Shown piece after piece: positions 33,913 through 60,893 of a stretch of 60,893 nt of DNA. A model generated the notes under the pieces. The model had not been told where the DNA came from. It made no database searches and saw only the letters and a program-made list of their open reading frames with translations. Position 1 is the stretch's first letter. Each line of letters starts with the position of its first letter. The position numbers and the translations under genes were made by a program. Source of the DNA: Candidatus Onthovivens sp. (lineage in GTDB: Bacteria; Bacillota_I; Bacilli_A; RFN20; CAG-826); the NCBI GenBank assembly GCA_036746835.1, contig DAIODM010000004.1:1-60893 (forward strand), read 5' to 3'.

Positions 33913-33919
33913 TTTTTTA

Positions 33920-41343: not shown

Positions 41344-41805
41344 TTACTGATTTTTAATAACTTGATTTAAATATAAAGCGACCTTATCAGCGTCTAAACA
41401 ATAGCGAACAATAAGGTCTTTTTTATTGGTGTTTTTAAACTTAAAAACTACAACCGATTCTTGGCTATTTAAAAATTTTCTATGCTCTACACTTTGAATG
41501 TCTTTATAAGAAAATTCTTCATAATTATTTTTAGTTTTATAAACTCTTAAGTGATCAATTGAAGTGGTGATTAAAGGGTCAGGTCTAACAAGATAAATAG
41601 TAATGAAAACTACAACAACAAGAGAAAAGAGGGCACTTACTATGCCTAAAACGAGTAAAAGAATATTTATAGAAGCATTTTTATCATTTGGAAAAGCTGG
41701 AAATAAACAAACAAAAGTACAAATAATTAAAAAGAATAGTGGGAATAAAAATACCCATATAAAATCAACATTCTTTTTGGCTAATTCTCTAAATTCATTC
41801 ATCAT
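41344..41805 (-). CDS. Hypothetical membrane protein (2 TM plus possible PH-like domain)
   Basis: Two hydrophobic helices followed by a beta-rich soluble part; ATGA overlap with the AraC-GH39 stop. Confidence 0.7.
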   Translation of the reverse strand: MMNEFRELAKKNVDFIWVFLFPLFFLIICTFVCLFPAFPNDKNASINILLLVLGIVSALFSLVVVVFITIYLVRPDPLITTSIDHLRVYKTKNNYEEFSYKDIQSVEHRKFLNSQESVVVFKFKNTNKKDLIVRYCLDADKVALYLNQVIKNQ

Positions 41806-44288: not shown

Positions 44289-44442
44289 GACTATATTATA
44301 GTTATATTTTTTGATTATTGAACTTATTTCGTTAAATAAGTGACAAATTTTAATCTACTTTTAGGTAAATACCTGCTTACTTTCCTTTTACAATGCCTTT
44401 TTTTATTAATTTTTTGTACTAAAGTCCATTAAAACTGGTACG

Positions 44443-44456
44443 TGAAAGCGCTTACA
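44443..44456. promoter_or_regulatory. cre/LacI-family operator upstream of the sugar operon
   Basis: TGAAAGCGCTTACA matches the CcpA cre consensus TGWAANCGNTNWCA at all defined positions. Confidence 0.75.
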
Positions 44457-44509
44457 ATCTTATAAAATTATGGCAGTTAGATGTGGAAATGTCCTAAAAG
44501 GAGGTTGCA

Positions 44510-46084
44510 ATGGCAAACGAAGTAATTTTCGAGGTTAAAGATTGCTCAAAGCACTTTGGCCCAACAACAGCGCTCAATCACGTTAATTTCACTATTAGAA
44601 GAGGTGAGATTACTGGTTTGATTGGAGAAAATGGTAGTGGTAAGTCAACTCTTTCGGCTATCATGACTGGTATTTATGACCGCAACGGCGGTGAAATGTT
44701 TTTTAAAGGACAACCATGGGAACCAAAATCAATGATTTGGTCCATGAATAATGGAATAGGCATTATTGTCCAAGAAAAAGGAACTATTAGCAATATTACA
44801 GTTGCTGAAAATATATTCTTAGGTGAAGCTTCCAAATTCTCACTTTTTAAAACTAAAAAAGGAAAATGCTGGGGTCCAGTAATTCGTAAGAGAATGAATG
44901 AAGCGGCTGATAAAGTCCTTAAAGATATGGGAGAAACTAAGTTTACTGGTGCTACTCCAATTAATATGATCAACTTCCAAGATCAAAAATTAATTGAAAT
45001 TGCAAAAGTCATTGCTAAGAATCCTGACATTCTTATTGTTGATGAAACAAGTACTGCTCTTTCTCAACACGGACGTGACATCCTTTATAACTTAATTCAT
45101 AAGATGAGAGATGAGAATAAAGCCGTTGTCTTCATTTCTCACGATTTAGATGAAATTATGGAACAATGCGATACCTTAACAGTCTTACGTGATGGAAACA
45201 TTATTCGTACCTTTGATAAAAAGAAAGGTGAATATGATCCAGATAAGATTAAGGAAAGCATGATTGGTCGTGAACTTAAAGGTGATTATTATCGAAGCGA
45301 TTATGATGGAAGTTTCGATGAAAACAAAGTTGTCTTATCGATGAAACACGCAGTCATTGGTCCTAATATTAAAGATTTTAATCTTAAACTTCATAAAGGT
45401 GAAATTCTTGGTATTGGTGGTCTTAGTGAATGTGGAATGCACGTAATTGGAAAAGCATTATTTGGAGCAATTCCTCTCGATGCTGGTACAGTCTTTGCTT
45501 ATAAAAAGATTGTAGATAAGAAAACTGGCAAAGAAGTTATTAAAGGTTTCCCAATCGATAGTCCAGATCATGCAATTGAAGCTGGAATTGGTTACGCCTC
45601 AAAAGATCGTGATATCGAATCGCTCAACTTAGATGCTCCAATTAAAGATAATATTGCAATTGCTGGTCTTGATAAATTTGCTACTGCTAAATTCTTCATG
45701 GATCCTCGTAAAGAAAAAGCATATGTTAAAAAACAAGCTGATTTCTTATCAATTAAATGTGCATCTTTGGATCAATATGTTAGTGCACTTAGTGGTGGTA
45801 ACAAACAAAAAGTTGCCTTCGCTAAATGGATTGGAAAAGACTGTGATATCTTGATTCTTGATTGTCCAACCCGTGGTGTCGATATTGGTGTTAAACAAGC
45901 AATGTATCAACTTATGTATTCATTAAAGAAACAAGGTAAGTCAATCATTATGATTAGTGAAGAGCTTGCTGAGTTAATCGGAATGAGCGACACACTCGCA
46001 GTTATTAAAGATGGTAAGTTAACTAAGACATTCCCAAGAAGCAAAGATCTTAGTGAATCAGATATCATCAAATACATGATTTAA
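44510..46084 (+). CDS. Sugar ABC transporter ATP-binding protein (CUT2, RbsA/MglA-like, two NBDs)
   Basis: GENGSGKST, VDETSTAL, ISHDLDE, LSGGNKQKV, DCPTRGVDIG. Confidence 0.93.
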   Translation: MANEVIFEVKDCSKHFGPTTALNHVNFTIRRGEITGLIGENGSGKSTLSAIMTGIYDRNGGEMFFKGQPWEPKSMIWSMNNGIGIIVQEKGTISNITVAENIFLGEASKFSLFKTKKGKCWGPVIRKRMNEAADKVLKDMGETKFTGATPINMINFQDQKLIEIAKVIAKNPDILIVDETSTALSQHGRDILYNLIHKMRDENKAVVFISHDLDEIMEQCDTLTVLRDGNIIRTFDKKKGEYDPDKIKESMIGRELKGDYYRSDYDGSFDENKVVLSMKHAVIGPNIKDFNLKLHKGEILGIGGLSECGMHVIGKALFGAIPLDAGTVFAYKKIVDKKTGKEVIKGFPIDSPDHAIEAGIGYASKDRDIESLNLDAPIKDNIAIAGLDKFATAKFFMDPRKEKAYVKKQADFLSIKCASLDQYVSALSGGNKQKVAFAKWIGKDCDILILDCPTRGVDIGVKQAMYQLMYSLKKQGKSIIMISEELAELIGMSDTLAVIKDGKLTKTFPRSKDLSESDIIKYMI

Positions 46085-46096
46085 AAGGAGGAAATT

Positions 46097-47182
46097 ATGT
46101 CATTAAAAGATTTAATAAAAAATAAAAAAACTACTGAAACTCCTAAACCACAAGAAAATGGTGCGGTTGTAGTTGAGACTCAAGAAGAGAAAAAGGCAAA
46201 AACACTTAAAGCCTTCACTCGTCAAAAGTTAATTGGTAGTTTCTTACCATTTGTCGGATTAATCGTTCTATTTGTTCTTTATTCAGTAATTATTATTAAC
46301 GAAGGTTACTTATATGAAGATGCAATTTGGGCAACATTCGATCGTGGTGTCTATATTGCAATCATGGCAATCGGTGCAAGTTTCTTATTCACCCTTGGTC
46401 AATTCGATTTATCACTTGGTAGTGCAATGGGTTTAAGTGCTGCCGCTGCTCTTCTTGTTTATAGAGGAACTGGAAATATTGGATTAACTATTGTCGTTTG
46501 TATCGTTACAGCTATTGTCGTTAGTTTACTTAATATTCTCTTCTCATCAATCTTACGAGTTCCAATCTTCATTATGTCTATCGCAATGATGACGGTTCTC
46601 CAAAAGGTTATCTTAGGTTTAATTAGTGCCTTCTCAACGTCTGGTGAATCAAGTATTAACTTATCACCAAACCCATTCAATGACACTTTCCTTTATACCA
46701 AATGGTTTAGATTGATAGTCCTTATTGTATATTTCATTGTTTGTTTCTTTATCTTCAGATATTTAAAGTTTGGTCGTAAAGCAAAATTCTTAGGTGGAAA
46801 CCCATTCTGCGCAAGATTAACTGGTATTTCTCCAAGAACTAATTCAATTATTGCCTTCTTAATTTGTGCTGTTGGTGTTGGTCTTACGTCACTTGTCTTC
46901 ATTTGTGAAACTCCAATTGTAACAAGTGCAACCGGAACTACATATGGTATGGATATCATGGTCGCTATTGTTATCGGTGGTATGCCAATGTCAGGTGGTG
47001 CTCGTAGTAAGATTACTGCTTCTGTCTGTGGTGCATTTACTCTTGCTTTCCTTGAAGCGGTCTTAAGATCGTTCCCAGAAACAAGTGGTGAAGGAATGAT
47101 TCAAATCGTTAAAGCTGTGTTGTTTATTGTTTTGGTCTTTATGTCTAGTTGGTCTTATCGTGGTAAGACGCTTCCTAGATAA
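46097..47182 (+). CDS. Sugar ABC transporter permease 1 (RbsC-like)
   Basis: Multi-TM; GQFDLSLGS, FGRKAKFLGGNP...ARLTGI, VAIVIGGMPMSGG. Confidence 0.9.
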   Translation: MSLKDLIKNKKTTETPKPQENGAVVVETQEEKKAKTLKAFTRQKLIGSFLPFVGLIVLFVLYSVIIINEGYLYEDAIWATFDRGVYIAIMAIGASFLFTLGQFDLSLGSAMGLSAAAALLVYRGTGNIGLTIVVCIVTAIVVSLLNILFSSILRVPIFIMSIAMMTVLQKVILGLISAFSTSGESSINLSPNPFNDTFLYTKWFRLIVLIVYFIVCFFIFRYLKFGRKAKFLGGNPFCARLTGISPRTNSIIAFLICAVGVGLTSLVFICETPIVTSATGTTYGMDIMVAIVIGGMPMSGGARSKITASVCGAFTLAFLEAVLRSFPETSGEGMIQIVKAVLFIVLVFMSSWSYRGKTLPR

Positions 47183-47220
47183 AAATATATTTCACTTTTT
47201 AAGGGAGGAATTAAAATTCT

Positions 47221-48648
47221 ATGAAAAAAATGAAAAGTGTATTAGTCAGTAGTGCTGCGATTGGTATTCTTTGTGCCGGTCTCGTTGGTTGTGGAAATAG
47301 TAATGGTGGTAAAATCCGTATTGGATTTATTAACCCAGATACAGGCGGTGGTGAAACTGTTGCTTGGGCAAGTTATGTAAGTGATTATTTAACTAAAGCT
47401 TATAGCGATAAGTATCAATTCTATGTTTAAACTTTCAACGCTTTTACATCAACTACAAACTCAACAACTGAGTGCAAAGATATGTTAGCAAAAGGTTGTA
47501 AAGCCATTGTCGAAATTGGTTATGGTACTGAAGCTAACTTTACTGCTTGTAAAGAAAAAGGTGCTTATTATTGCGCCGTTGGTTCATCACCAAATAATAA
47601 AACTAAATTAACCAGTGCTGAATGGGGCAGCATTAATGATCACTTCGTCGGTGTTTTAGGACCAAGTCTCGATCAAGAAGCTCAAGCTGGTTACGATATG
47701 GCTGATCACTATATTAAACAAGGATTAAAAGATTTCGGAATTTATGGTTGTGTCATCGGATATGCTCAATCTTATGGGGTTACCGTTCACGCTTGGCGTG
47801 TTGCCGGTATGCTTAAGAGAATGCTTGAAGATGCTCCAGATTCAACTACTCAATATTGCGCATTTGATAATGGTAGTGGTAAGCAAGTTGGCTTCACCAA
47901 GAATAGTACCATTGATGAAATGGAAGGCATTATTGCTGGTCGAAGTAACTTCTATGGTGTTGATGCAAATGGTAAACAATGGGCCGTCGGTGATATTTGC
48001 AAAGTCGGACCATATAGAATCAATTATTGGCAACAAAACGTTGCTGATACCACTTTAAATGATGCAGAAGAGGTTTATTTTACCACTGATAAAGCTGGTA
48101 ATAATAATCCAGATTCAACCTTCAAAGCCCAAGTAATTTTAGGTAGTGCCAGTGCTTATGGTATGTTTGCTAAAAAGGGAAGATGTGTCATTGGTAGTGA
48201 TGGTAAGGTCGATTTAGGTATTGCTGAAGTCGAGTCCTTCGCTGATGCTAATAAAGCCGCCATGCAAAGTGGTTATATTACCTATGAATGTGGCAAGATG
48301 AACAGCTGTATTGGTCCTGCTTTCGCTGCTGTCTTCAGTGCTTTAAATGGTCGTAACTTTGGTGTTGATGCAGCTGGTAAAGCTGAATTAATGGTTGGTA
48401 GTCAAGGTTTCTGGAATGTTGGTAGTGTTAGTGAGTTTGAAGAATTAGCAACTTTTGATGCTTATGCTACTCACCCAGCCTATTCAAGAGCTTTACTTGA
48501 AACTATGACTTATAAGACTGAAGCCGAAACTGATCCAGATGGTAAGACATATCCAGTTAACAACATTACTAAGGATGAATTCTTAGCTAAGTTCAACGCT
48601 TATACTTACGCTGATGTTAAAGCTGCTCGTACTGCTGCTGAAGCTTAA
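47221..48648 (+). pseudogene. Sugar ABC substrate-binding lipoprotein interrupted by one in-frame TAA
   Basis: ORFs 47221-47430 and 47482-48648 share a frame. TAA at 47428-47430 is the only break (QFYV*TFNAFTSTTNSTTECKDMLAKG). Lipobox LVGC. The restored product would be 475 codons. May be a sequencing or strain variant. Confidence 0.8.
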
Positions 48649-48696
48649 TCAATTAAATAAATTATAGATGAGACTAGCTTATTAATTACGAAAGGG

Positions 48697-48722
48697 TCCT
48701 GGCCTAATAAAATAGGCCAGGA
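48697..48722 (+). other. Intra-operon stem-loop after the SBP gene
   Basis: TCCTGGCCTA-ATAAAA-TAGGCCAGGA, no U tract. Confidence 0.65.
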
Positions 48723-48736
48723 ACTATGGTGAAAAT

Positions 48737-49837
48737 ATGGAAAGAAACAAAGGATTAGATTTAACTACTAAAAAAGGAAAGATCCTTTTCAAATTAATGA
48801 ATATTGGAAAAGCTCTTATTCTTCCTGTAGTTATAACTTTAATTTTCCTTGTCACAACAAGCGCACAAGGATTACAACTTTTTAGCGAATACACAGATTA
48901 TCAAATCTTTACTCGTCAAGTGGTTGTTGCATTACTTATTGCTTTCGCATTTGGTATGCACATGTCACAAGGTCGTATGGATTTCTCAATTGGTGCAACA
49001 ATGATTTTAGGAGAAATTATTACAACTCAACTCATGGTTAAAATGGGTTTATTAACTAATACATTCCTCTTCTTCATTCTTATTGTTACGATTACCTGTG
49101 CATTATCGGTTATCGGTGGTCTTGTTTACGTACTTTTCCGTATTCCACCTATGATTAGTGGCTTAGGTATGACCTTACTCTATGAAGGAATTGCTTATAA
49201 CTTAAATGAAAAAGCATCGGGAACTTCACGTTTCGATCTTGTTTCAAATAACTTTGCAGTTACCTTTAATGGAATTGGTGAAATGCTTATTTTAGCTGCG
49301 ATTATCATAATTATTATGATTGGAATCTATCGATATTCTAAATGGAGTTTCGATAGTGCTTTATTACAAAATGGTCAATTACAAGCAGTTCAATGTGGTG
49401 TTAAAGAAGTTCCAAATACTTTAATTGGATACGCTTTAGCTGGTGTTTTAATTGGTATTGCTGGATTCGTTACTGTTGGAAATGCGACTATTTTAACTGC
49501 ATCTGTTGGCTTTGGTTCTACTGCAACTACAATGAGCGCAATGCTCCCAATGTTTATTGGTGGATTTATTTCATCCTTTGTACCTTATCCAGTTGCTATT
49601 TGTCTTGGTGCTATAAGTTCAACTATGCTCTCTTATGGTTTAGGAAAAACCTTCATTATGAAAGATGGTTCAACCTATGCTTCAATTATTAACGCTTTAT
49701 TCTTACTCTTCTTCTTAGCTTATATGTTTAATCAATATAAGATCAAAGAAGTGTTACATATTAGGTCCTTCATTGCTAATAAAAAGCTAAGAAGGCTCTC
49801 AAGAAAGAAATGGAAGGTCTTGAATAATGAATACTGA
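48737..49837 (+). CDS. Sugar ABC transporter permease 2
   Basis: Multi-TM; GRMDFSIGA, RIPPMISGLG, AVQCGV, PMFIGG. Confidence 0.88.
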   Translation: MERNKGLDLTTKKGKILFKLMNIGKALILPVVITLIFLVTTSAQGLQLFSEYTDYQIFTRQVVVALLIAFAFGMHMSQGRMDFSIGATMILGEIITTQLMVKMGLLTNTFLFFILIVTITCALSVIGGLVYVLFRIPPMISGLGMTLLYEGIAYNLNEKASGTSRFDLVSNNFAVTFNGIGEMLILAAIIIIIMIGIYRYSKWSFDSALLQNGQLQAVQCGVKEVPNTLIGYALAGVLIGIAGFVTVGNATILTASVGFGSTATTMSAMLPMFIGGFISSFVPYPVAICLGAISSTMLSYGLGKTFIMKDGSTYASIINALFLLFFLAYMFNQYKIKEVLHIRSFIANKKLRRLSRKKWKVLNNEY

Positions 49838-51557
49838 AAAAATTAAAGAATTAAAAGGGAAACCTTTTTATCTTAAAGATGAAGATATCAAGTGGATTAA
49901 TGATACGCTTAACTCAATGACTTTAGATGAGAAGATTGGTCAATTATTCCATCTTGTTGCATATTCTAGTGAAGAAAAAGTCCTCGAACATATGGTCAAA
50001 GATTTACATATTAATGGCTTAATGGTCAGAGGCGGAATGCCTATTGAAGAAGTTTGCTTTGTTACTAATTATCTTCAAAAGAATAGTAAAATTCCTTGTT
50101 TAATTAGTGCTAACCTTGAAAGTGGTGGCAGTGGTTGTGTTAAGGAAGGTACTCAAGTTGGTAAACAAATGCAAATTGGTGCTACTGATAAAGTTGAAAA
50201 TGCAACTTTATTAGCTCACGTTTGTGGCGAAGAAGCTAATGCAGTTGGCGTAAATTGGGCTTTTGCTCCAGTTAGTGATATTGATCTTAATTGGCGTAAT
50301 CCAATTACCAATACTCGTTTATATTGCAATGATTATAAAAAAGTTGCTGCATATACTACTGCTTATATTAAAGAAGTTCAAAAACTCGGTTTACTTGGTT
50401 GTGGAAAACACTTCCCAGGAGATGGAGTTGATGAAAGAGATCAACATCTTGTCGCTAGTGTAAACAGTTTATCTCGCGAAGATTGGATGAAGATGTATGG
50501 TCATATTTATAAGACACAAATTGAAAATGGTGTTAAGACCATCATGGTTGGACATATTCTTCAACCAGCATGGGAGAAATATTTAACTCCAGGTTTAAAA
50601 GATAAAGATTGTATGCCAGGAACCTTAAGTAAAGGTTTAGTCACTGGTTTACTTCGTGGTGAACTTGGTTTTAAAGGTATGATTACAACCGATGCTACAA
50701 CAATGGCTGGTATGACAACAATGATGCGTAGAGATCTTGCAGTTCCTACTACAATTGCGATTGGTTGCGATTGTTTCTTATTTACTAAGAACCTTGATGA
50801 AGATTATAAGTTCATGATGGAAGGTTATAAAAAAGGAATTATTACTCCAGAAAGACTTGATGATGCAGTTACGAATGTTTTAGCCGCTAAAGCCTCAATT
50901 GGTTTACATAAAGCAAAAGCTAATGGATCAATTATTAAAGATCCAGTTGCTGCTAGTAAAGTTGTTGGTTGTAAAGAATTCCAAGATGATGCAAAGATGA
51001 TTGCTGATAATTGCATCACTATTATTAAGGAAGAGAAGGGTGTTTTACCTCTTTCACCAAAGAAATACAAGAAAGTATTACTTTATGGACTTGAAGTTGA
51101 AGCACCAAATGTCTTTGGTTTCACAAATGATAGTATTATTAATGATTTCCAAAAGAAGCTTGAAAAAGAAGGATTTGAAGTTACAAGATTCTCTCCTCAA
51201 AAAGCTCTTAAAGAAGGTATGTTACAAGGCGTAGAAGATATGAAGAAGAATTATGATTTACTTCTTTATTGTGCTAACCTTGCAACTAAATCAAATCAAA
51301 CATCTATTAGAATTGAATGGCATATTCCATTTGGAACAGATGTTCCAGCTTATGTAAAAGAAGTTCCAACTGTCTTCGTAAGTTTAGAGAATCCATATCA
51401 CTTGATTGATGTTCCTCGTGTTGAAACATTTATTAATACATATGGCGGCAGCCAATACGTTCTTGATGCTTTAATTGAAAAGTTAATGGGAAGAAGTAAG
51501 TTTACTGGTAAAGACCCAGTTGATTCATTCTGCGGCATGTGGGATACTCACTTATAA
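49827..51557 (+). CDS. GH3 glycosidase of the His acid/base (NagZ-like) group; predicted beta-glycoside phosphorylase
   Basis: ANLESG, WAFAPVSDI, NPITNTR, KHFPGDGVDERDQH (50406-50447), IMVGHI, nucleophile TTDATTM. Confidence 0.85.
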   Translation: MNTEKIKELKGKPFYLKDEDIKWINDTLNSMTLDEKIGQLFHLVAYSSEEKVLEHMVKDLHINGLMVRGGMPIEEVCFVTNYLQKNSKIPCLISANLESGGSGCVKEGTQVGKQMQIGATDKVENATLLAHVCGEEANAVGVNWAFAPVSDIDLNWRNPITNTRLYCNDYKKVAAYTTAYIKEVQKLGLLGCGKHFPGDGVDERDQHLVASVNSLSREDWMKMYGHIYKTQIENGVKTIMVGHILQPAWEKYLTPGLKDKDCMPGTLSKGLVTGLLRGELGFKGMITTDATTMAGMTTMMRRDLAVPTTIAIGCDCFLFTKNLDEDYKFMMEGYKKGIITPERLDDAVTNVLAAKASIGLHKAKANGSIIKDPVAASKVVGCKEFQDDAKMIADNCITIIKEEKGVLPLSPKKYKKVLLYGLEVEAPNVFGFTNDSIINDFQKKLEKEGFEVTRFSPQKALKEGMLQGVEDMKKNYDLLLYCANLATKSNQTSIRIEWHIPFGTDVPAYVKEVPTVFVSLENPYHLIDVPRVETFINTYGGSQYVLDALIEKLMGRSKFTGKDPVDSFCGMWDTHL

Positions 51558-51558
51558 T

Positions 51559-52197
51559 ATGAAATATAGTGGAGTAATTTTTGATTTAGATGGTGTTATT
51601 TGTTTTACTGATGAATATCACTATCTATCTTGGAAAGCTATTGCAGATAAAGAAGGAATTTACTTTGATCGAACAATAAATAATCGTCTTAGAGGTGTTA
51701 GTCGAATGGCTTCTCTTGATATTATTTTAGAGAAAGCAAATAAGACATATAGTGAACAAGAAAAAGTTGCTCTTGCAACTGAAAAGAATGAGATATATAA
51801 GGGTTATTTAGTTAAAATGACTCCGAAAGATGTCTCTAGCGATGTTTTAAAAACACTAAAAACTTTACGTGCAAAAGGTATTAAAATTGCAATTGGTTCA
51901 TCAAGCAAAAACACTAAATTAATTTTAAAACAAATCGGTTTACTTGATGCGTTTGATGAGATTGCTGATGGTAATGATATTACACACAGCAAACCAGACC
52001 CTGAAGTATTCCTTTGTGCAGCAAAGAAAATCAAAGAAGATCCAAAAGATTGTATTGTTGTTGAAGATGCTTATGCTGGAATTGATGCAGCAAATGCTGG
52101 ACATTTTACTAGCGTAGCAATTGGTGATGCAGCTAACTATGACAAAGCCAATTATAAGATAAAGAAGTTAAGCGATATTTTAAAAATTATTAAATAA
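51559..52197 (+). CDS. pgmB: Beta-phosphoglucomutase (HAD family)
   Basis: IFDLDGVICFTDEYHYLSWK, RLRGVSRMASL, GSSSKN, SKPDPEVF, VEDAYAG. Start at ATG 51559, 1 nt after the GH3 stop. Confidence 0.92.
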   Translation: MKYSGVIFDLDGVICFTDEYHYLSWKAIADKEGIYFDRTINNRLRGVSRMASLDIILEKANKTYSEQEKVALATEKNEIYKGYLVKMTPKDVSSDVLKTLKTLRAKGIKIAIGSSSKNTKLILKQIGLLDAFDEIADGNDITHSKPDPEVFLCAAKKIKEDPKDCIVVEDAYAGIDAANAGHFTSVAIGDAANYDKANYKIKKLSDILKIIK

Positions 52198-52205
52198 GGA
52201 GCATT

Positions 52206-52991
52206 ATGGCACACATTGAAATTAATTTTATAAGCGCTACTTTTACTCGAGCTGTTGATGTATTACTTATTTTACCAAGCCGAACAACTATGGAAGGCAT
52301 GATGGATAAAGGTCAAACTTTAAAAAATCACTATCAAAGTGTTAAAGATAAGAAATTCCCTTTACTCATTCTTCTTCATGGTATGGCTAACAACTTTAAA
52401 ACTTGGGCAAATTATGCTCGTGTTGAATTATATGCTGAAGAGCATAACATTGCGATTGCAATGGTAAGTGGTGAAAATAAGTTTTATTTAAATAATAAAG
52501 CTGACAAATGGTATGACTTTATTGAATATGAACTTAAAGATTATTTATATGGCACATTCCCAATTTCTAGCGATCCAAAAAATAACTATATTGCTGGATT
52601 AAGTATGGGTGGATTTGGTGCTTTATATCATGGTATCAGTAATCCAAAAGCTTATGCTGCAATTGGTTCATTTAGTGGTGCTATTCATATTGATGGAAAA
52701 GGATTTGAAAATATGGGTGTTGAACCTGAATTTACTCCAATTCCTGAAATGGCTTTAAAGAACAAGAAAGATTTACCTCCACTTTATGTTGCTTGTGGAA
52801 GCGATGATTTCTTATATCAAGCTAATGTCGATTTTGCAAAATTTTTAGATGATAATAAGATTAAAAATTATCATGAATTTGTTCCAGGATTTACTCATGA
52901 ATGGAGATTCTGGGATCTTGAACTTGAAAAATTCTTAGACTGGATTCCTCGTAGTGATGATTATAAAGAAGTCAGCAAGAGAAAAGTTTAA
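52206..52991 (+). CDS. Alpha/beta-hydrolase esterase (tributyrin esterase/CE1-like)
   Basis: LLHG, GLSMGG nucleophile elbow, CGSDD, HEWRFW. Confidence 0.88.
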   Translation: MAHIEINFISATFTRAVDVLLILPSRTTMEGMMDKGQTLKNHYQSVKDKKFPLLILLHGMANNFKTWANYARVELYAEEHNIAIAMVSGENKFYLNNKADKWYDFIEYELKDYLYGTFPISSDPKNNYIAGLSMGGFGALYHGISNPKAYAAIGSFSGAIHIDGKGFENMGVEPEFTPIPEMALKNKKDLPPLYVACGSDDFLYQANVDFAKFLDDNKIKNYHEFVPGFTHEWRFWDLELEKFLDWIPRSDDYKEVSKRKV

Positions 52992-53006
52992 ACAATAATA
53001 TAAATA

Positions 53007-53033
53007 TAGGCCCTTTTCTTGTGAAAGGGCCTA
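53007..53033 (+). other. Intra-operon stem-loop
   Basis: TAGGCCCTTTT-CTTGT-GAAAGGGCCTA, no U tract. Confidence 0.65.
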
Positions 53034-53055
53034 ATTAATATTCGGAGGATTATAT

Positions 53056-55302
53056 ATGGATAAATTAGCAAAAACAATAAATTCAATGTCAATCGAAGAC
53101 AAATTAAAAACTGTACACGGTTCTAGTTTTTGGTTATTTAATAGTTATAGCAAAGATGTAAATCCTGTTAGTTGTACGGATGGACCAAACGGAATTAGAA
53201 AACAAAAAAGAGATGGGGATAATCTATTAATTTCTCAAAATTATGTTGAATGTACAACTTTTCCAACTGGTTCAACTTTTGCGTGTTCGTTTGATAAAGA
53301 GTTAGTTAATAAAATGGCTAAAGCATTAGCAATGGAATTCCAATTCTATAATGTTAATGTTTTATTAGGTCCTGCTGCTTGTATTAAAAGAAATCCATTA
53401 TGTGGTCGTAATTTCGAATATTTAAGTGAAGATCCTATTCTAAGCGGATATATAGCTGGAAATTATATTAAAGGAGCTGAATCTACTGGAACGGGGACTA
53501 GTTTAAAGCATTATGTAGCCAATAACCAAGAATTTGGTAGACAAATTAATTCCTCAACAATGTCTATTAAATGTTTAAGAGATATTTATACTAGAGGTTT
53601 TGAGATTGCTGCTCGAATTGGTAAACCTGCAACTATCATGGTTTCTTATAATAAGATTAATGGTGTTTATGCTTGTGAAAATAGTTACATTATGCAACAA
53701 GTAATGAGAAAAGAAGTGGGATATGAAGGGTTTTTCATTAGCGATTGGACTGGCGTTAGTAATCCTCTTGCTTCAATTAAAGCAGGTTTAAATGTTGAAA
53801 TGCCTGAAAGAAATTATGGTCCTAATTTCTATGAATTAGCTTATAAAGAAGGAAAAATTAAGGAAGATGATTTAAATGAACTTCTTCGTTATTACATTCC
53901 TTTTATTGATAAATATAGTAAAACTTATAATATTAAATCTATTGATTTTGAAGAGAATTTAAAATTAGCAGTTGAGGTTGCTGAAAACTCAATTGTTCTT
54001 GCAAAAAATGAAGAAAATTTCTTCCCACTATCTAAAGAAGAATCTCTCATTGTTTTAGGCAATCGTGCTAAACATATGGCTTATTTAGGTGGCGGAAGTA
54101 GTATGACAAACTCTCATCATAAACCTGACTTCATAAAAGTTTTGACTGACAATAATGTCAATTATAAATTTTTCGATTGTTATGATAAAAAAGGAAATTT
54201 AGATTTAAATTGTCTTAAGGAAATTAATAATGAAAAGGTTCTTGTTTTCTTAGGAACTGGTGATTTCGAAGAGAGCGAAGGCTTCGACCGAAAAGATATG
54301 AAATTACCTCCATACGAATTGAAATTAATGGAAGAATTAGCAAAAATAACGAAGAATGTAGGTGTTATTGTCGAATCTGGTTCAGTTGTTGAGCTTCCAT
54401 TCTTAGATAATATTAAAGGTTTATTTATTCCATATTTCGCTGGAGAAGGTGAAGATTATGCTTTATATAATTTAATTTATGGAAAGACTAATCCAAGCGG
54501 TAAACTTGCTGAAACCTGGATTAAAAAATATGAAGATTGTCCAAGTTCGTCATCTTATGATAAAGATGTTTATAACTCATATTATGATGAAGATATTTAT
54601 GTAGGATATCGATATTATGATAAGCATAATATCAAAGTTAATTTTCCATTCGGTCATGGTCTATCTTATACTAAATTTAAATTAAATTTATTAAGAACAG
54701 CCGTTAGTAAAGCCCATATTAAATGTGAAATCGAAGTTACTAATTTAGGTGATACTAAAGGTAAAGAAGTAATTGAAATTTATCTTGGAAAGAAAGATTC
54801 AAAAATCTATAGAGCTCCTCGTGAATTAGTAGGATTTAGTAAAGTTGAGGTTTTTCCTCATAGTAAAAAGAGAGTTATTGTGACAATTGATAACCTTGAT
54901 TTAAGGGTTTATGATCCTTCAACTAACAAATTAACCTTAGAAAATGGAAATTATGAATTATATTTAGGTGATTCTTCTCGATGTGATTTTATTGAAGAGA
55001 AAATAACTTTAGTCGGAGAGAATATTAAACCTTATGAACTTGTTGGACCTGATCATTCTTTGGTTTTTAAAGAAACAAAGGACATGAACATATTAGCATC
55101 AACCGTTTCAGAAACGCCTACATTTAAAGCGATACTTAAAAATGCTGGATTTACTGAAGATGTTCTACATCATAGTTTCTTCAAAGATGGTTTTTTCAAA
55201 AATCTAATTCGTGGTCTATCTGGATTAGGTTCGATTGATTATTGTGATGTTGAAAGACTACTTCCTCAGATGCTTAAGGAACTTGAAAATAGTAAAAAAT
55301 AA
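53056..55302 (+). CDS. GH3 beta-glucosidase (BglX-like, with FnIII domain)
   Basis: TDGPNGIR, PLCGRNFEYLSEDP, KHYVANNQE, nucleophile SDW, ESEGFDR, NPSGKL, VGYRYYD, FPFGHGLSYT. Confidence 0.92.
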   Translation: MDKLAKTINSMSIEDKLKTVHGSSFWLFNSYSKDVNPVSCTDGPNGIRKQKRDGDNLLISQNYVECTTFPTGSTFACSFDKELVNKMAKALAMEFQFYNVNVLLGPAACIKRNPLCGRNFEYLSEDPILSGYIAGNYIKGAESTGTGTSLKHYVANNQEFGRQINSSTMSIKCLRDIYTRGFEIAARIGKPATIMVSYNKINGVYACENSYIMQQVMRKEVGYEGFFISDWTGVSNPLASIKAGLNVEMPERNYGPNFYELAYKEGKIKEDDLNELLRYYIPFIDKYSKTYNIKSIDFEENLKLAVEVAENSIVLAKNEENFFPLSKEESLIVLGNRAKHMAYLGGGSSMTNSHHKPDFIKVLTDNNVNYKFFDCYDKKGNLDLNCLKEINNEKVLVFLGTGDFEESEGFDRKDMKLPPYELKLMEELAKITKNVGVIVESGSVVELPFLDNIKGLFIPYFAGEGEDYALYNLIYGKTNPSGKLAETWIKKYEDCPSSSSYDKDVYNSYYDEDIYVGYRYYDKHNIKVNFPFGHGLSYTKFKLNLLRTAVSKAHIKCEIEVTNLGDTKGKEVIEIYLGKKDSKIYRAPRELVGFSKVEVFPHSKKRVIVTIDNLDLRVYDPSTNKLTLENGNYELYLGDSSRCDFIEEKITLVGENIKPYELVGPDHSLVFKETKDMNILASTVSETPTFKAILKNAGFTEDVLHHSFFKDGFFKNLIRGLSGLGSIDYCDVERLLPQMLKELENSKK

Positions 55303-55319
55303 AAAAGAAGGGGATATAT

Positions 55320-56819
55320 ATGGATAATTTAATTGTTAAGACAAATTGTGGAGATGTTAAAGGCTATAAAGTTAAAGATGTTTTTAGATTTGAAGGTATT
55401 CCATTTGCTGAAAAACCTGTTCGTTTTAAAAGATCAGTTGAACTTAAAAAGTTTGATAAATTAATTGATGCAAAAGAACCTGCTGGTAGCTGCTATCAAT
55501 TTGGTCCTAATTTTGATGGAGATACGACTCCCAATGAATCAGAAGATTGTTTATATTTAAACGTTTTTACCAAAGAAACAAAAACTAAAAAACCAGTTTT
55601 CGTTTGGATTCATGGTGGTGGTTTTTTAACTGGATGTAGTTATTATCCAATGTATGATGGAACTAGTTTTGCAAAAAACGATGAAGTATATGTAAGTATT
55701 AATTATCGTTTAGGTGTTTTTGGATTTTATGATTTCCATCTTTTAAGCAAAGATTTTGATGAAAACATTGGTATTTATGATCAAATTGTTGCTTTAAATT
55801 GGATTAAACATAATATTGAAGCATTTGGTGGAGATCCTAATAATATTACAATTTGTGGTGAATCAGCTGGTGGAATTAGTGTTTTAACTTTACTTGCTTC
55901 ACCAACTACAAAAGGTTTATATAATAAAGCAATTGTTGAATCAAGTTTACCATATTGTATTTTTGGTAAAGAACAAGCGAAGATTTATGTTGATGCTTTC
56001 TTAAAAGTAAGTGGTATCGATGAAAAACATTTAAATAAATTAAATGAATTATATCCTAAAAAGATTATTGAATTAAATGGTCTAGCGATGGCTCTTGTAA
56101 ATAAAGATCATCCAGGATTTAATATTGCTTCTCCAGTTTGTGGAACCGATATTCTCCCTTACGATATTATTGAAGCGAATAAAAGAAGAATTAATGATAA
56201 TGTAAAACTTATTATTGGTACCAATAGAGATGAAGGTACTTTATTCTGCCAAAATAACGAACACAGTATGTTCCCATATGGATGGGATAAAGTTGGTACT
56301 ATGCTTACTTTAACAAAACACGATGATATTCTTCCTTCATTAAAAGAATACTATGATAAAACTTGGAAAGATTATGAATTCCATCAACTTGCTTACGATA
56401 CTTTATTTATTAGAGGAGCTTTAAACGTTGCAGAAACTCGAAGTGTTTATAGTGATGTCTATGTTTTTAGATTTGATTACGCTCTTCCAATAACAAAGAA
56501 ACTTGGCTTTAAAGCATGTCATGCTCTTGAGATGTCTTTCGTTTTAGGAACAACTGATTCAATGGCTGATCATCATCCATTCTTTAGACCAGGATATGAT
56601 AAAGTTGAAGTCAAAGAAGTTGAAAAACAAATGAATGATGCTTGGATTAACTTTGCTAAAAATGGTGATCCAAAAGGTGATAGTTTAATTGTTCCATGGC
56701 CTAAATATAATTACGAAACTAAACTTGCTCATGCTTTTAATGTTGAGCCATCGATTATTAGTTATAAAGATTATGAGCCAGTTAAGCTTCTTGACGATAT
56801 TAGAATTTGGACGCACTAA
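55320..56819 (+). CDS. Type-B carboxylesterase/lipase (p-nitrobenzyl esterase-like)
   Basis: GIPFA, SEDCLYLNV, VWIHGGGF, GESAGG (Ser), GTNRDEG (Glu), CHALE (His). Confidence 0.92.
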   Translation: MDNLIVKTNCGDVKGYKVKDVFRFEGIPFAEKPVRFKRSVELKKFDKLIDAKEPAGSCYQFGPNFDGDTTPNESEDCLYLNVFTKETKTKKPVFVWIHGGGFLTGCSYYPMYDGTSFAKNDEVYVSINYRLGVFGFYDFHLLSKDFDENIGIYDQIVALNWIKHNIEAFGGDPNNITICGESAGGISVLTLLASPTTKGLYNKAIVESSLPYCIFGKEQAKIYVDAFLKVSGIDEKHLNKLNELYPKKIIELNGLAMALVNKDHPGFNIASPVCGTDILPYDIIEANKRRINDNVKLIIGTNRDEGTLFCQNNEHSMFPYGWDKVGTMLTLTKHDDILPSLKEYYDKTWKDYEFHQLAYDTLFIRGALNVAETRSVYSDVYVFRFDYALPITKKLGFKACHALEMSFVLGTTDSMADHHPFFRPGYDKVEVKEVEKQMNDAWINFAKNGDPKGDSLIVPWPKYNYETKLAHAFNVEPSIISYKDYEPVKLLDDIRIWTH

Positions 56820-56832
56820 TATTAATAAAATG

Positions 56833-56861
56833 TATAGAGATTATTATTTTTAATCTCTATA
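56833..56861 (+). other. Intergenic stem-loop before the exporter genes
   Basis: TATAGAGATTA-n7-TAATCTCTATA. Confidence 0.55.
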
Positions 56862-56886
56862 ATTTAAGACGTTTAGAGGGTTTATT

Positions 56887-58641
56887 ATGATCTGGAAATT
56901 ACTAAAGAGTTTAAGGGAATATAAAGTTCCTTCGCTCCTATCTATCTTATTTATTGTTTTAGAGGTTGCTTGTGATATAGCTCTTCCATTTATTATCCAA
57001 TTTTTAATTGATAATTTAACAACTGGAGATTATGGGAAGTTATATTTATTCGGTGGTCTTCTTGTAGCGATATCATTAATATCGCTTCTTTTTGGTTTCT
57101 TTGCGGCTAAATTTGCAAGTAAAGCTTCGACAGGTTTTGCTAAAAACTTACGAAAAGATCTTTTCTATAAAGTACAAGATTTTAGTTTTAGTAATATTGA
57201 TAAGTTTTCTAGTTCAAGTTTAGTAACTCGTATGACAACCGATATTCAATGGGTTCAAATGGCCTATGGAATGATTATTCGTGGTGCCTTTAGAGCTCCT
57301 TTAATGTTTGTTTTTTCAATTGTCGCAGCATTCTTTATTAATGCTCAACTAGCTTGGATATTTGTTATTATGACTCCTATTATTGGTGGAATTTTAGTTT
57401 TGCTTGCAAAATTAGCCCATCCTATTTTTGATAAAGTTTTCACTAAATATGATGCTTTAAACGCAAGCGTTGAAGAAAATATTCGTGGTATTCGAACCGT
57501 AAAAACTTATGTACGTGAAGATTATGAAAAGAAAAAGTTTGGTAATGCGAGTGATGAAATTACTAAAAACTTTATTAAAGCAAACAAGATTCTTGCTTGG
57601 CAAAACCCAACAATGAACGTTGCAATGCACGTATCAATTACTTTAATTAGTGTTTTAGGCGCTTACCTTGTAACTTCAACTTATAAAAGTTATGATCCAC
57701 AAAACGGAATTGTTTATGGAGCACTAAGTACTGGTCAAATTTCTAGTTTAATTACTTATGGAGTTCAATCTTTCGTTTCTTTAATGTTTTTAACAATGAT
57801 TGGCGTAATGGTTGTTATTTCAATCACTTCTATGCGACGTATTGTTGAAGTATTAGACGAAGTCCCTGATATTAAAGATAAAGAAAATGCTTTGACTACT
57901 ATAAAAGATGGAAGTATTAGTTTTAATGATGTTAATTTTAAATACAAACAAGATGCTGAAAAGTATGCTTTAAAAAATATTAATTTGAGTATTAAAAGTG
58001 GTGACTTTATTGGAATTTTAGGTGCTACTGGTTCTAGTAAAACTACGCTTGTTAGTTTAATTTCACGTTTATACGATACGACTACAGGTGAGGTTAAAGT
58101 AGGCGGCATCAATGTTAAAGATTACAATTTAAAAACTTTAAGAGATAATGTTTCAGTTGTTCTTCAAAAGAATTTGCTTTTTAGTGGAACAATTAAAGAA
58201 AATTTACGTTGGGGAAACCCAAGTGCTACTGATGAAGAAATAATTCACGCTTGTAAATTAGCTCAAGCTGATGAATTTATTCGTTCGTTTCCTGATGGAT
58301 ATGATACCCATATTGAACAAAATGGTAATAACGTAAGCGGTGGTCAAAAACAACGTTTGTGTATTGCTCGTGCACTTTTAAAGAATCCTAAAATTTTAAT
58401 TCTTGATGATTCTACCAGTGCAGTTGATACAAAAACTGATGCCTTAATTCGTAAATCTTTTAAAGAAGAAATCCCACATTGTACACGAATTGTTATTGCT
58501 CAACGTGTAGCTTCTCTTCAAGATGCTGACCAGATTTTTATTATGGATAATGGAACTATTGTCGCTCGTGGAACTCATGATGAATTATTAAAGACTAGTG
58601 ATATTTATCGCGAAACATACGAGATGCAAAATAGGGATTAG
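56887..58641 (+). CDS. Heterodimeric ABC exporter subunit, degenerate-site type (TM287-like)
   Basis: TMD plus NBD with GATGSSKTT, SGGQKQR, ILDDSTSAVD (Asp for the catalytic Glu) and IAQR (Gln switch). Confidence 0.92.
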   Translation: MIWKLLKSLREYKVPSLLSILFIVLEVACDIALPFIIQFLIDNLTTGDYGKLYLFGGLLVAISLISLLFGFFAAKFASKASTGFAKNLRKDLFYKVQDFSFSNIDKFSSSSLVTRMTTDIQWVQMAYGMIIRGAFRAPLMFVFSIVAAFFINAQLAWIFVIMTPIIGGILVLLAKLAHPIFDKVFTKYDALNASVEENIRGIRTVKTYVREDYEKKKFGNASDEITKNFIKANKILAWQNPTMNVAMHVSITLISVLGAYLVTSTYKSYDPQNGIVYGALSTGQISSLITYGVQSFVSLMFLTMIGVMVVISITSMRRIVEVLDEVPDIKDKENALTTIKDGSISFNDVNFKYKQDAEKYALKNINLSIKSGDFIGILGATGSSKTTLVSLISRLYDTTTGEVKVGGINVKDYNLKTLRDNVSVVLQKNLLFSGTIKENLRWGNPSATDEEIIHACKLAQADEFIRSFPDGYDTHIEQNGNNVSGGQKQRLCIARALLKNPKILILDDSTSAVDTKTDALIRKSFKEEIPHCTRIVIAQRVASLQDADQIFIMDNGTIVARGTHDELLKTSDIYRETYEMQNRD

Positions 58642-58653
58642 GAGGATCACGAT

Positions 58654-60570
58654 ATGGCAGAAGAAAAAATGAATAAAAAGATTGATCGTGGTGCTTTATC
58701 CCGTTTAATCAAATATATATTTAAAAAACACAAAGTATCGGTAATTATAATTATTGTTTGTGTTTTGCTTTCAAGTGTTTTAAATATGTCTAGCTCAATT
58801 TTCCTTGAGCAAATCGTTGATCAAATTATTATGCCTTGTATTAAACAAGGACTTAAATTTGAAGATTTTAGAAGTCAATTAATGGTAATTTTGTTCACGA
58901 TGATTGGAATGTATAGTGCAGGAATTATCACCACAATTATTTATGGTCAAATTATGGCAAGCTTAAGTGAAACCATTAATAACGAGCTACGTAAAGAGAT
59001 GTTTGATAGTATGGAAGTTCTTCCAATTAAGTTCTTCGATACCCATGCATATGGTGATGTGATGTCTCTTTATACTAATGATATTGATACCTTATCGCAA
59101 TTTATTAGTAATTCACTTATTCAAATAGTTTCTACAGTTTTCACTCTTACTTATGTTGTTTGTATTATGCTTTATTACTCAATTTGGATGCTTCTTGTTG
59201 TTTTGCTTGGCGCAGCTTTAATGCTTGGCGCTAGTAAAACATTTGCTGGAAAAAGTATTCATTATTTTAGAGCCCAACAAAAAGAAACCGGATCAACTGA
59301 AGGTTATATTGAAGAGATTATGAATGGTGAAAAAGTTGTTAAAGTTTTCACCCATGAAGATGAAGTAAAAGAAGAATTTAATAAGCATAATGAAGACTTA
59401 TTTAAAGTTTCAGAAAATGCAACTTTCTATAGTAACGTTTTAGGACCTGTTTTGATGAATATATCTAACTTTGTCTATGTTATTGTTGCTATTGCGGGTA
59501 GTATTTTAATTTTCACAGGTTGTTTCAATATTAGTTTAAGAGGTTATGAAGCTAGTCTTTCAGTAGGTATTGTTATTAGTTTCTTAACTTTAACTCGTCA
59601 ATTTGCTCAATCTATAAACAATATTTCTCAACAGATTGGTATTATTGCTCAAGCAAGTGCAGGAGCTTCTCGTGTCTTCAATATGATTGATCAAAAACCA
59701 GAAGAAGATGATGGGTATGTTACTCTTGTAAATGTAAAAATTGGTCAAAATAACGAACTTATTGAGACAAAAGAAAGAACAAATATTTGGGCTTGGAAGC
59801 ATCCTCATCATGAAGGCGGAATTACTTATACTTTACTTAAAGGTGAGATTGTTTTAAATCATGTAGACTTTGGTTACGTTCCAGAAAAGATTGTTCTTCA
59901 TGACGTTACAATTGATGCAAAAGCTGGAGAAAGAATTGCTTTTGTTGGAGCAACTGGAGCTGGAAAAACTACTATTACGAATTTAATTAATAGGTTCTAT
60001 GATATTCAAGATGGCAAGATTCGTTATGATGGAATAAATATTAATAAGATTAAGAAGAGTGATTTAAGAAAATCACTTGGTGTTGTTCTTCAAGATACAA
60101 GTTTATTTACAGGAACCGTTCTTGAAAATATAAGATATGGTAGGCTTGATGCAACGGATGAAGAAGTTTATGAAGCGGCAAAGATTGCTAATGCTTATGA
60201 CTTTATTACTCGTCTACCTCAAGGATTTAATACAATGCTTACTAGTGATGGAGCGAACTTATCGCAAGGTCAACGTCAATTATTATCAATTGCTCGTTGT
60301 GCAGTCGCAAATACTCCAGCAATGATTCTTGATGAAGCTACTTCCTCAATTGATACTCGTACCGAACAACTTGTTCAAGAAGGTACTAATAAACTTATGG
60401 CTGGTCGTACTGTTTTTGTTATAGCTCACCGTCTTTCAACTGTTCAAAATAGTAATAACATTATTGTTTTGGATCATGGACGAATTATCGAAGAAGGAAC
60501 CCATGATGATTTAATTAAGAAGAAGGGTGTTTACTATCAACTTTATACTGGTGCTTTTGAACTCGAATAA
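58654..60570 (+). CDS. Heterodimeric ABC exporter subunit, consensus-site type (TM288-like)
   Basis: GATGAGKTT, LSQGQRQ, ILDEATSSID, AHRLST. Confidence 0.92.
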   Translation: MAEEKMNKKIDRGALSRLIKYIFKKHKVSVIIIIVCVLLSSVLNMSSSIFLEQIVDQIIMPCIKQGLKFEDFRSQLMVILFTMIGMYSAGIITTIIYGQIMASLSETINNELRKEMFDSMEVLPIKFFDTHAYGDVMSLYTNDIDTLSQFISNSLIQIVSTVFTLTYVVCIMLYYSIWMLLVVLLGAALMLGASKTFAGKSIHYFRAQQKETGSTEGYIEEIMNGEKVVKVFTHEDEVKEEFNKHNEDLFKVSENATFYSNVLGPVLMNISNFVYVIVAIAGSILIFTGCFNISLRGYEASLSVGIVISFLTLTRQFAQSINNISQQIGIIAQASAGASRVFNMIDQKPEEDDGYVTLVNVKIGQNNELIETKERTNIWAWKHPHHEGGITYTLLKGEIVLNHVDFGYVPEKIVLHDVTIDAKAGERIAFVGATGAGKTTITNLINRFYDIQDGKIRYDGININKIKKSDLRKSLGVVLQDTSLFTGTVLENIRYGRLDATDEEVYEAAKIANAYDFITRLPQGFNTMLTSDGANLSQGQRQLLSIARCAVANTPAMILDEATSSIDTRTEQLVQEGTNKLMAGRTVFVIAHRLSTVQNSNNIIVLDHGRIIEEGTHDDLIKKKGVYYQLYTGAFELE

Positions 60571-60572
60571 TT

Positions 60573-60607
60573 AAAAAAGAAAACTACAAATTGTAGTTTT
60601 CTTTTAT
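60573..60607. terminator. Bidirectional intrinsic terminator
   Basis: AAAAGAAAACTACA-AAT-TGTAGTTTTCTTTT between convergent genes. Confidence 0.8.
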
Positions 60608-60635
60608 TATAAGGAGGTCATTCCATTATAATTAA

Positions 60636-60893
60636 TTAAATGAGGTAGTTTTTAGTTGCCTCTACTGCTTTAGACATATATTCTTCTTTATAACTAAATG
60701 ATTCATTATAAAAACAATGGTTAGCATCATCAACCTTTATAAGTTCTGCATTTTTATAACAGGTTAGTGCTTTTTCGCTTACGCTAAGAGGAACGACAAC
60801 ATCTTTTGTTCCATGAATTAAAAGAATTTTATAGTTAATATTTTGCATATCTTTATAAGGATCGTAATTATAAATATCAGCGTAATAACATTT
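60636..60893 (-). CDS. C-terminal part of an alpha/beta hydrolase (cinnamoyl/feruloyl esterase-like), truncated by the window edge
   Basis: The frame stays open to 60893: KCYYADIYNYDPYKDMQNINYKILLIHGTKDVVVP...DDANHCF (catalytic Asp and His). Confidence 0.75.
   Translation of the reverse strand, partial: KCYYADIYNYDPYKDMQNINYKILLIHGTKDVVVPLSVSEKALTCYKNAELIKVDDANHCFYNESFSYKEEYMSKAVEATKNYLI

Follow-up and report, generated by a model that had tools for sequence, protein, structure and literature searches.

A GH3 phosphorylase operon of Candidatus Onthovivens and other Bacillota predicted to import, trim and phosphorolyse decorated beta-glucosides

We analysed a 60.9-kb contig of Candidatus Onthovivens sp., a low-GC bacterium of gut or digester type (DAIODM010000004.1, 60,893 nt, approximately 30% G+C; hereafter the window), in which 11 genes run along the plus strand from 44510 to 60570 with gaps of no more than 88 nt (Table 1). 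The run is best read as a conserved core followed by a lineage-specific extension, rather than as one ancient pathway, because of the gene content of its relatives, a hairpin at the boundary and a difference in G+C. The core recurs in dozens of species and is a genuine type of operon, apparently undescribed, for beta-glucosides that carry acyl or rhamnosyl decorations. With a probability of about 0.6, its predicted function is the import of a decorated beta-glucoside, de-acylation, retaining phosphorolysis and conversion of the product by beta-phosphoglucomutase (beta-PGM).

In the proposed mechanism, a regulator that joins AraC and glycoside hydrolase family 39 (GH39) domains would control an ATP-binding cassette (ABC) importer of the CUT2 type (core, 41802-52991), and the importer would take up a small beta-D-glucoside whose glucose is decorated (acylated). 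A cytoplasmic esterase would strip the acyl decoration. An enzyme of family GH3 related to the phosphorylase BglP would then cleave the beta-glucosidic bond with phosphate and with retention of configuration, yielding beta-glucose 1-phosphate and an aglycone or remaining sugar. beta-PGM would convert beta-glucose 1-phosphate to glucose 6-phosphate, sparing the ATP of a kinase, and the remaining moiety would be released. In sister clades a GH78 alpha-L-rhamnosidase takes the place of the esterase, sometimes together with RhaB, RhaA and RhaD, and the operon family appears to be tuned by this exchangeable decoration-removing enzyme. The extension (53056-60570) would probably widen the range of decorated glycosides handled, and may also dispose of the released hydrophobic product.

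Gene identities were assigned by Pfam, NCBIfam and PDB sequence searches. An earlier, sequence-only reading of the same DNA had listed the genes of the run as co-oriented and their enzymes as lacking obvious signal peptides; every gene on its list was found as claimed, and none of the five enzymes of the cluster carries an N-terminal signal peptide, indicating a cytoplasmic location. The arrangement is not a chance one, since the same 11-gene order is kept in the loci L001, L008, L105 and L108 at approximately 77-85% nucleotide identity.

The 576-residue GH3 enzyme had been proposed to be of the phosphorylase type, and this stands on a full-length match to BglP (5VQD; 476 bits, E 1.6e-141, residues 10-576) and on a retained Asp-His dyad. 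The dyad residues D205 and H207 lie in the motif KHFPGDGVDERDQH and the nucleophile D289 in TTDAT. All three are invariant in 12 relatives (alignment A1), and D205 and H207 align with D232 and H234 of YbbD (NagZ). An exact-sequence lookup of the window enzyme returned no match, and its relatives were reached by homology. BglP is said to have been described by Macdonald et al. 2018, and the phosphate-recognition positions of GH3 phosphorylases reportedly by Franceus et al. 2021. BglP (PDB 5VQD and 5VQE), a retaining enzyme that comes from a bioreactor metagenome, is the only GH3 beta-glucoside phosphorylase with a characterised structure (PMC8950772). A histidine in place of a carboxylate has been linked to phosphorolysis in GH3 (PMC8950772, PMC8819650), and three active-site phosphate-recognition positions of GH3 phosphorylases are mentioned in a further report (PMC10913872). 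From homology and from the linkage to beta-PGM we infer that the window enzyme is phosphorolytic.

The beta-PGM assignment is well supported (TIGR01990, 237.1 bits against a cut-off of 189.4), with the HAD DxD residues in an (F)DLDGV motif at the N-terminus. Its adjacency fits the predicted chemistry, as retaining phosphorolysis of a beta-glucoside would give beta-glucose 1-phosphate, the substrate of beta-PGM. The breadth of this coupling was gauged by a scan of one genome per species, which returned 80 loci; counts were made over 77 species-level loci. For each locus, open reading frames (ORFs) were called and clustered by BLASTP, and cluster representatives were annotated with Pfam. A gene was counted when it lay in the same-strand run containing the GH3 phosphorylase, and the regulator when it lay within 10 kb. 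beta-PGM shares the run in 48 of the 77 loci and also accompanies BglP in its own locus, which bears out the coupling that had been suggested for the window.

These data also bear on whether the enzyme is instead a NagZ-like N-acetylglucosaminidase of cell-wall recycling with unrelated neighbours. The best NCBIfam match of its N-terminal domain is indeed a beta-N-acetylhexosaminidase, NagZ and YbbD are the next-best PDB matches, and BglP also turns over pNP-GlcNAc (PMC8950772). The NagZ model, however, scores 95 bits against a cut-off of 207, and YbbD 158 bits against the 476 of BglP. Furthermore, the frequent presence of beta-PGM in the GH3 run and the absence of genes for MurNAc or GlcNAc catabolism from the cluster do not fit such a role. 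This reading was rejected on scores and context, and we consider it very improbable.

L088, L097 and L104 (JGI Ga0172378, Ga0172377 and Ga0265294), from metagenomes that also hold the sister genome of the window (L001, L003), contain the authentic BglP gene at 100% identity. Its locus encodes an AraC-type response regulator, a histidine kinase, a CUT1 binding protein with two permeases, BglP, beta-PGM and a major facilitator superfamily (MFS) transporter. The two loci are alike in having enzymes of one clade with the same dyad and nucleophile, preceded by an ABC importer and followed directly by beta-PGM. They differ in that the importer of the BglP locus is of the CUT1 type, and in that this locus also encodes a YesMN-type two-component system and an MFS transporter and is without an esterase, a rhamnosidase, an AraC-GH39 regulator or an ABC exporter. 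The phosphorylase/beta-PGM pair is thus the constant element, and transporters and trimming enzymes vary. No description of the natural substrate or operon of BglP was found in the searchable literature.

Across the survey a recurrent order emerged: a divergent regulator, then ATPase, permease, binding protein, permease, GH3 phosphorylase, an exchangeable slot and beta-PGM. A CUT2 permease is present in the run of 31 loci, an alpha/beta-hydrolase esterase in 24, GH78 in 12 and RhaB/RhaA/RhaD genes in 4. Four families are represented among the esterases (PF00756, BD-FAE, Abhydrolase_3 and COesterase), which must therefore have been recruited repeatedly. The intracellular de-acylation step of the earlier proposal thus gains support, from esterases of four families in 24 operons and from GH78 in the same slot of 12 others. 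In a neighbour-joining tree of the GH3 enzymes, a clade of 12 species, all of which carry CUT2, beta-PGM and esterase genes, is the sister group of the window and L008, and the operons of the adjoining clade all carry CUT2 and GH78. In three Acholeplasmatales loci the gene after the second permease encodes a stand-alone GH39 enzyme. In the searchable literature, whose coverage is incomplete, no description was found of a GH3-phosphorylase operon or of an exchangeable esterase/rhamnosidase slot.

The GH78 variants indicate, from gene content, that related operons would import compounds containing both alpha-L-rhamnose and beta-D-glucose. In L018, L024, L025 and L078 the operon continues into an FGGY kinase and L-rhamnose isomerase, with a class II aldolase in the first three. 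GH78 is present in L018, L025 and L078, and a BD-FAE esterase takes its place in L024. This type would amount to a complete rhamnoglucoside catabolic operon. Approximately 3.4 kb upstream of the GH3 phosphorylase/beta-PGM pair of L006 (GCA_942493145.1), positions 5815-6645 encode a bacterial chalcone-isomerase N-terminal domain (PF18232); the proximity may point to flavonoid degradation or be coincidental.

The importer has the features of the CUT2 class, namely a single double-domain ATPase with PF02653, RbsC/MglC-type permeases. Scores of the ATPase with the RbsA (370 bits), XylG and GguA models ranged from 356 to 370 bits and fell short of the equivalog cut-off in each case. The binding protein was harder to place. 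A word-indexed homology search with it returned only five proteins, and the window protein alone matched no Pfam model and, by phmmer, no PDB sequence. A profile built from 27 locus-derived relatives matched ribose- and galactofuranose-binding proteins in the PDB (E approximately 1e-8), and 17 of the 27 matched PF13407 (Peripla_BP_4). We therefore regard it as a putative divergent CUT2-type (Peripla_BP_4-like) protein, with an extra segment of approximately 90 residues in the lineage of the window. Directly after its gene, at 48650-48736, lies a GC-rich hairpin (GGGTCCTGGCCTA...TAGGCCAGGAAC). GC-rich hairpins after binding-protein genes are typical 3' stabilisers that raise their mRNA levels in ABC operons.

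The binding-protein gene is interrupted by an in-frame TAA (47428-47430) that the sequence-only reading had missed; relatives have TCA (Ser) at this codon, and an intact copy of the gene is found, for example, at L001 7401-8828. The stop falls between the lipoprotein signal peptide and the remainder, so that, as sequenced, the anchor is cut off from the binding domain. All other genes of the cluster are intact. The TAA may have arisen by a recent nonsense mutation, in which case uptake would be disabled in this genome, or it may be a base-call error. An alternative genetic code was rejected, as the other ORFs read normally with table 11 and the relatives carry a serine codon.

Several points weigh against the function proposed for the core. 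Phosphorolysis by the window GH3 is predicted from BglP, and its identity to the authentic BglP gene product is only 43%. The action of the esterase before the phosphorylase is an assumed order, the gene for the importer's binding protein contains a premature stop, and the exporter is not co-conserved with the GH3 genes. CUT2 systems normally carry monosaccharide-sized ligands, and import of a glycoside of 400-600 Da would be unusual for them. Finally, the text of a review states that BglP acts on cello-oligosaccharides (PMC8950772), which would favour an oligosaccharide substrate.

Accordingly, a rival account holds that the substrates are acetylated or feruloylated beta-gluco- or xylo-oligosaccharides, or oligosaccharides of rhamnose and glucose (gellan-type Glc-Rha-Glc), with the GH3 removing terminal beta-glucose and no toxic export needed. 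Beyond the reported phosphorolysis of cello-oligosaccharides, the nearest matches of the second GH3 of the run are GH3 enzymes of the cellobiose and xyloside types, the PF00756 esterase has feruloyl esterases and CE1 enzymes among its relatives, and the sensor domain of the regulator is beta-xylosidase-like. The importer in the BglP locus is of the CUT1 oligosaccharide type, and a GH88 gene flanks the Halalkalibacter locus. To this may be added the gellan pathway of Bacillus sp. GL1, which is known to involve a beta-glucosidase and a rhamnosidase. On the other hand, CUT2 importers are typical of small ligands, and neither the window nor the surveyed loci contain an endo-glycanase, lyase or carbohydrate-binding module. 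Moreover, Table 1 of the review gives only aryl glucosides as substrates of BglP (PMC8950772). Carriers of the operon are found mainly among gut genomes (rumen, horse, goat, reindeer, rabbit, chicken and human) and rhizosphere bacilli, and the genomes of flavonoid-deglycosylating Catenibacillus are unusually rich in intracellular GH39, GH3 and GH78 (PMC11170127). We regard the oligosaccharide account as a serious rival, though at odds well short of even.

The aryl substrates of BglP, the habitats of the carriers and the gene richness of Catenibacillus lead us to favour plant diglycosides or acyl-glucosides for the core operon, and the rhamnosidase variants together with the herbivore-gut distribution make a plant-glycoside substrate more plausible. 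The data are compatible with plant phenolic, secoiridoid or saponin glycosides, the substrate class that had been put forward from the gene list. A bolder version is offered here only tentatively. In it, the BglP clade would lie at the heart of a widespread, undescribed route in anaerobic Bacillota, which would obtain glucose by phosphorolysis of decorated glucosides of plant secondary metabolites. The slot (esterase, GH78 or GH39) would set the range, AraC-GH39 proteins would sense the glycosides, and the lineage of the window would have captured a MarR-type multidrug pump for the aglycone. Candidate substrates, all with good leaving groups, would then be acyl- or rhamnosyl-substituted aryl or terpenoid beta-glucosides and possibly 1-O-acyl-glucose esters.

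The boundary between core and extension is marked in several ways. L004, whose GH3 phosphorylase is 81% identical to that of the window, is without the second GH3 and without the exporter, and a hydrolytic GH3 occurs in the phosphorylase run of only 3 loci; the hydrolytic GH3 and type-B esterase are largely lineage-specific. The hairpin at 53007-53033 is kept in L001 and L002 with a different loop and is likely to be a partial terminator or processing site between the two parts. G+C is 33.5-36% in the core (44001-52000) versus 28-32% in the downstream extension and flanking chromosome, which is compatible with a separate origin of the core. Within the extension, the 748-residue GH3 scored 494 bits with NF041610, below the cut-off of 1300, and could be a beta-glucosidase, beta-xylosidase or alpha-L-arabinopyranosidase. 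The type-B carboxylesterase matched PF00135 (310.8 bits) and PnbA (1QE3, E 1.3e-77) and has GESAG at residue 180. A third, convergent esterase had been counted in the cluster. A hydrolase gene is present there, but as a fragment outside the conserved cluster, and its position is not conserved; its homologue in L105 (14708-14980) is set apart by an intervening HD-domain gene.

The two exporter subunits, EXPA and EXPB, match chains A and B of 3QF4 one-to-one (E 1e-124 and 1e-123). They resemble the heterodimeric type-IV exporters TM287/288, EfrCD, LmrCD and BmrCD in this correspondence and in having one degenerate and one consensus ATP site. The window pair has, however, lost the MarR gene that stands before the pair in three of four sampled relatives of approximately 60% identity, and sits behind a carboxylesterase gene. 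The exporter formed part of the sequence-only reading, in which the whole 16-kb run is one pathway for plant aryl or terpenoid glycosides and an integral ABC exporter expels the toxic aglycone. The short gaps of the co-oriented run are in keeping with this, as is the only strong terminator, placed after the second exporter gene. The exporter is also included in the synteny of L001, L008, L105 and L108, and the gap between esterase and exporter in L001 is 16 nt; relatives with 81-93% exporter identity (L105, L106, L108) keep the whole cluster. MarR regulators often sense phenolics, and MarR genes precede the pair in three of the four sampled relatives of approximately 60% identity. In 10 of the 77 loci a MATE pump is encoded within 10 kb of the phosphorylase, and in the BglP locus the gene after beta-PGM is that of the MFS transporter.

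Against a single pathway, the exporter pair occurs inside the GH3 phosphorylase run of 1 of 77 species-level loci, that of the window, and is confined to its narrow lineage. In the same three of four relatives, moreover, the pair forms a stand-alone MarR-EXPA-EXPB operon among housekeeping genes with no glycosidase nearby; in the fourth the genes before it encode a BD-FAE esterase and an MBL-fold protein. The gene content of L004 and the conserved hairpin likewise separate core from extension. Proximity itself is weak evidence, as Bacillota commonly carry heterodimeric ABC pumps and MATE pumps. MATE pumps (2 loci within the run) were rejected as support for efflux, being too near the Bacillota background. 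Thus, of the two gene types for which co-conservation with the GH3 genes had been called for, the esterases show it and the exporter does not. The core of the earlier pathway is supported, whereas aglycone export as a conserved step is not. We consider a single 16-kb pathway unlikely; aglycone export is possible in this lineage but has no support from conservation and is similarly improbable.

The regulator stands divergent to the run, as had been noted, though beyond the start (44510) then given to the cluster. Its GH39-like domain keeps both catalytic glutamates (WNEP, EFN), aligned to E160 and E277 of XynB (1PX8), and its best NCBIfam relative is Staphylococcus aureus AryK (148 bits against a cut-off of 850). 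A homologous AraC-GH39 regulator lies within 10 kb in 37 of the 77 loci. Besides the window, loci with AraC-GH39 fusions include L001, L005, L007 and approximately 30 others. Such proteins may be catalytically active sensor-regulators; a search of the literature, of incomplete coverage, found no description of them. The 153-residue membrane protein encoded beside the regulator is probably co-transcribed with it and is kept there in L001 and L008 (cluster c33). At the same position, the Acholeplasmatales loci L010, L011 and L017 encode unrelated small membrane proteins.

Aryl beta-glucosides are known to be used through phosphotransferase systems (PTS) with phospho-beta-glucosidases of GH1 and GH4, as in the bgl, arb and asc operons. 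ABC or MFS uptake with GH1 or GH3 hydrolases, and GH94 phosphorylases, are also known in Gram-positive bacteria. The claim that described Gram-positive routes use a PTS instead was therefore too narrow, even though the window cluster itself is indeed without one: no PTS enzyme II component and no GH1 or GH4 6-phospho-beta-glucosidase was found in 41.3-60.9 kb. The cluster resembles PTS systems in its candidate substrates (salicin- or arbutin-like beta-glucosides) and in cleavage inside the cell, but it would capture energy by phosphorolysis once an ABC importer has taken up the substrate, where a PTS phosphorylates its substrate during transport. Operons pairing a GH65 alpha-glucoside phosphorylase with beta-PGM, for maltose, trehalose, kojibiose or nigerose, offer the closest logic, in which an imported glucoside is converted through beta-glucose 1-phosphate to glucose 6-phosphate with a saving of ATP (PMC11442529). 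GH65 enzymes are inverting and act on alpha-glucosides, whereas the window enzyme is predicted to be a retaining GH3 acting on beta-glucosides, and GH65 operons are without a slot for a decoration-removing esterase or rhamnosidase. The rhamnosidase and beta-glucosidase routes of gut bacteria such as Catenibacillus share cytoplasmic GH78, GH3 and GH39 enzymes, a herbivore or human gut setting and stepwise removal of an outer sugar and then glucose (PMC11170127). Those described routes are hydrolytic, however, and the window operon has esterases, with GH78 only in its sister clades.

Already known, then, are the BglP enzyme family and the logic of phosphorylase with beta-PGM (GH65 operons). GH3 beta-glucoside phosphorylases have been represented by a single metagenomic enzyme, for which the assays used artificial aryl glucosides, and their cellular role is not stated in the searchable literature. 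The conserved context of ABC importer, beta-PGM and an esterase or GH78 slot with rhamnose genes gives a short list of testable substrates, and the survey points to cultured strains suited to such tests. Cultured carriers of the esterase type are Caproicibacter fermentans EA1, Paenibacillus montaniterrae J40TS1 and P. rubinfantis MT18, and those of the GH78 type Anaerobium acetethylicum GluBS11 and Halalkalibacter sp. APA_J-10(15). Should the substrates prove to be plant glycosides, gut and rumen Bacillota would have an ATP-saving means of deglycosylating dietary polyphenols and saponins, with a bearing on the bioavailability of both. The phosphorylases could also be used to make beta-glucosides from beta-glucose 1-phosphate, and the AraC-GH39 fusions that keep their catalytic residues are candidate glycoside sensors.

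Table 1. Features of the GH3 phosphorylase cluster and its flanks in the window
Feature	Position	Strand	Evidence or remark
Small protein, 153 aa, two predicted membrane helices	41344..41805	-	Overlaps regulator gene stop
Regulator, 828 aa: AraC cupin, two helix-turn-helix motifs, full GH39-like domain	41802..44288	-	Pfam
Divergent intergenic control region, 221 nt, between regulator and transporter operon	44289..44509		
CUT2-type ABC ATPase, two fused nucleotide-binding domains, 524 aa	44510..46084	+	PF00005 twice
CUT2 permease 1, 361 aa	46097..47182	+	BPD_transp_2 (PF02653)
Lipoprotein substrate-binding protein, approximately 475 aa in relatives	47221..48648	+	Interrupted by TAA
CUT2 permease 2, 366 aa	48737..49837	+	Weak MglC/AlsC similarity; relatives match BPD_transp_2
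Predicted GH3 retaining beta-glucoside phosphorylase, BglP clade, 576 aa	49827..51557	+	5VQD match
beta-PGM, 212 aa from ATG	51559..52197	+	ORF opens at TTG 51520
Cytoplasmic esterase, 261 aa, esterase D/CE1-like	52206..52991	+	PF00756; GLSMG motif
GC-rich hairpin, 11-bp stem, in esterase-GH3 gap	53007..53033	+	
Hydrolytic-type GH3, 748 aa, N and C domains and Fn3-like domain	53056..55302	+	SDW nucleophile motif
Type-B carboxylesterase, 499 aa, PnbA-like	55320..56819	+	PF00135
ABC half-transporter A (EXPA, TM287-like)	56887..58641	+	Degenerate ATP site: Walker A GATGSSKT, Walker B ILILDD
ABC half-transporter B (EXPB, TM288-like)	58654..60570	+	Walker A GATGAGKT and Walker B MILDE canonical; signature LSQGQ non-canonical
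Bidirectional terminator, 14-bp hairpin, T runs on both sides	60575..60605		Closes co-oriented run
Alpha/beta hydrolase C-terminal fragment (Peptidase_S9/DLH-like)	60634..60893	-	Cut by contig end

A promoter scan did not rise above chance (72 sites against 96.7 expected), and no promoter was assigned. Terminator-like sites numbered 12 against 7.7 expected; two intergenic hairpins were used, one being conserved and the other closing the run. Rfam revealed no riboswitch or leader in the cluster, and its sole match in the window was the bacterial small signal recognition particle RNA (RF00169, 60 bits; 22228-22323, minus strand).

The window also contains the chromosomal origin region (24634-36008), with gyrA, gyrB and dnaA (31977-33383) on the minus strand and yidC (34251-36008) on the plus strand. 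The cumulative GC skew has its minimum at approximately 32-34 kb, and the glycoside cluster begins approximately 10 kb to the right of this point, on the leading strand. Elsewhere, positions 2384-5332 encode a 982-residue protein with an extracellular SBP_bac_3 solute-binding domain and a C-terminal EAL (c-di-GMP phosphodiesterase) domain.

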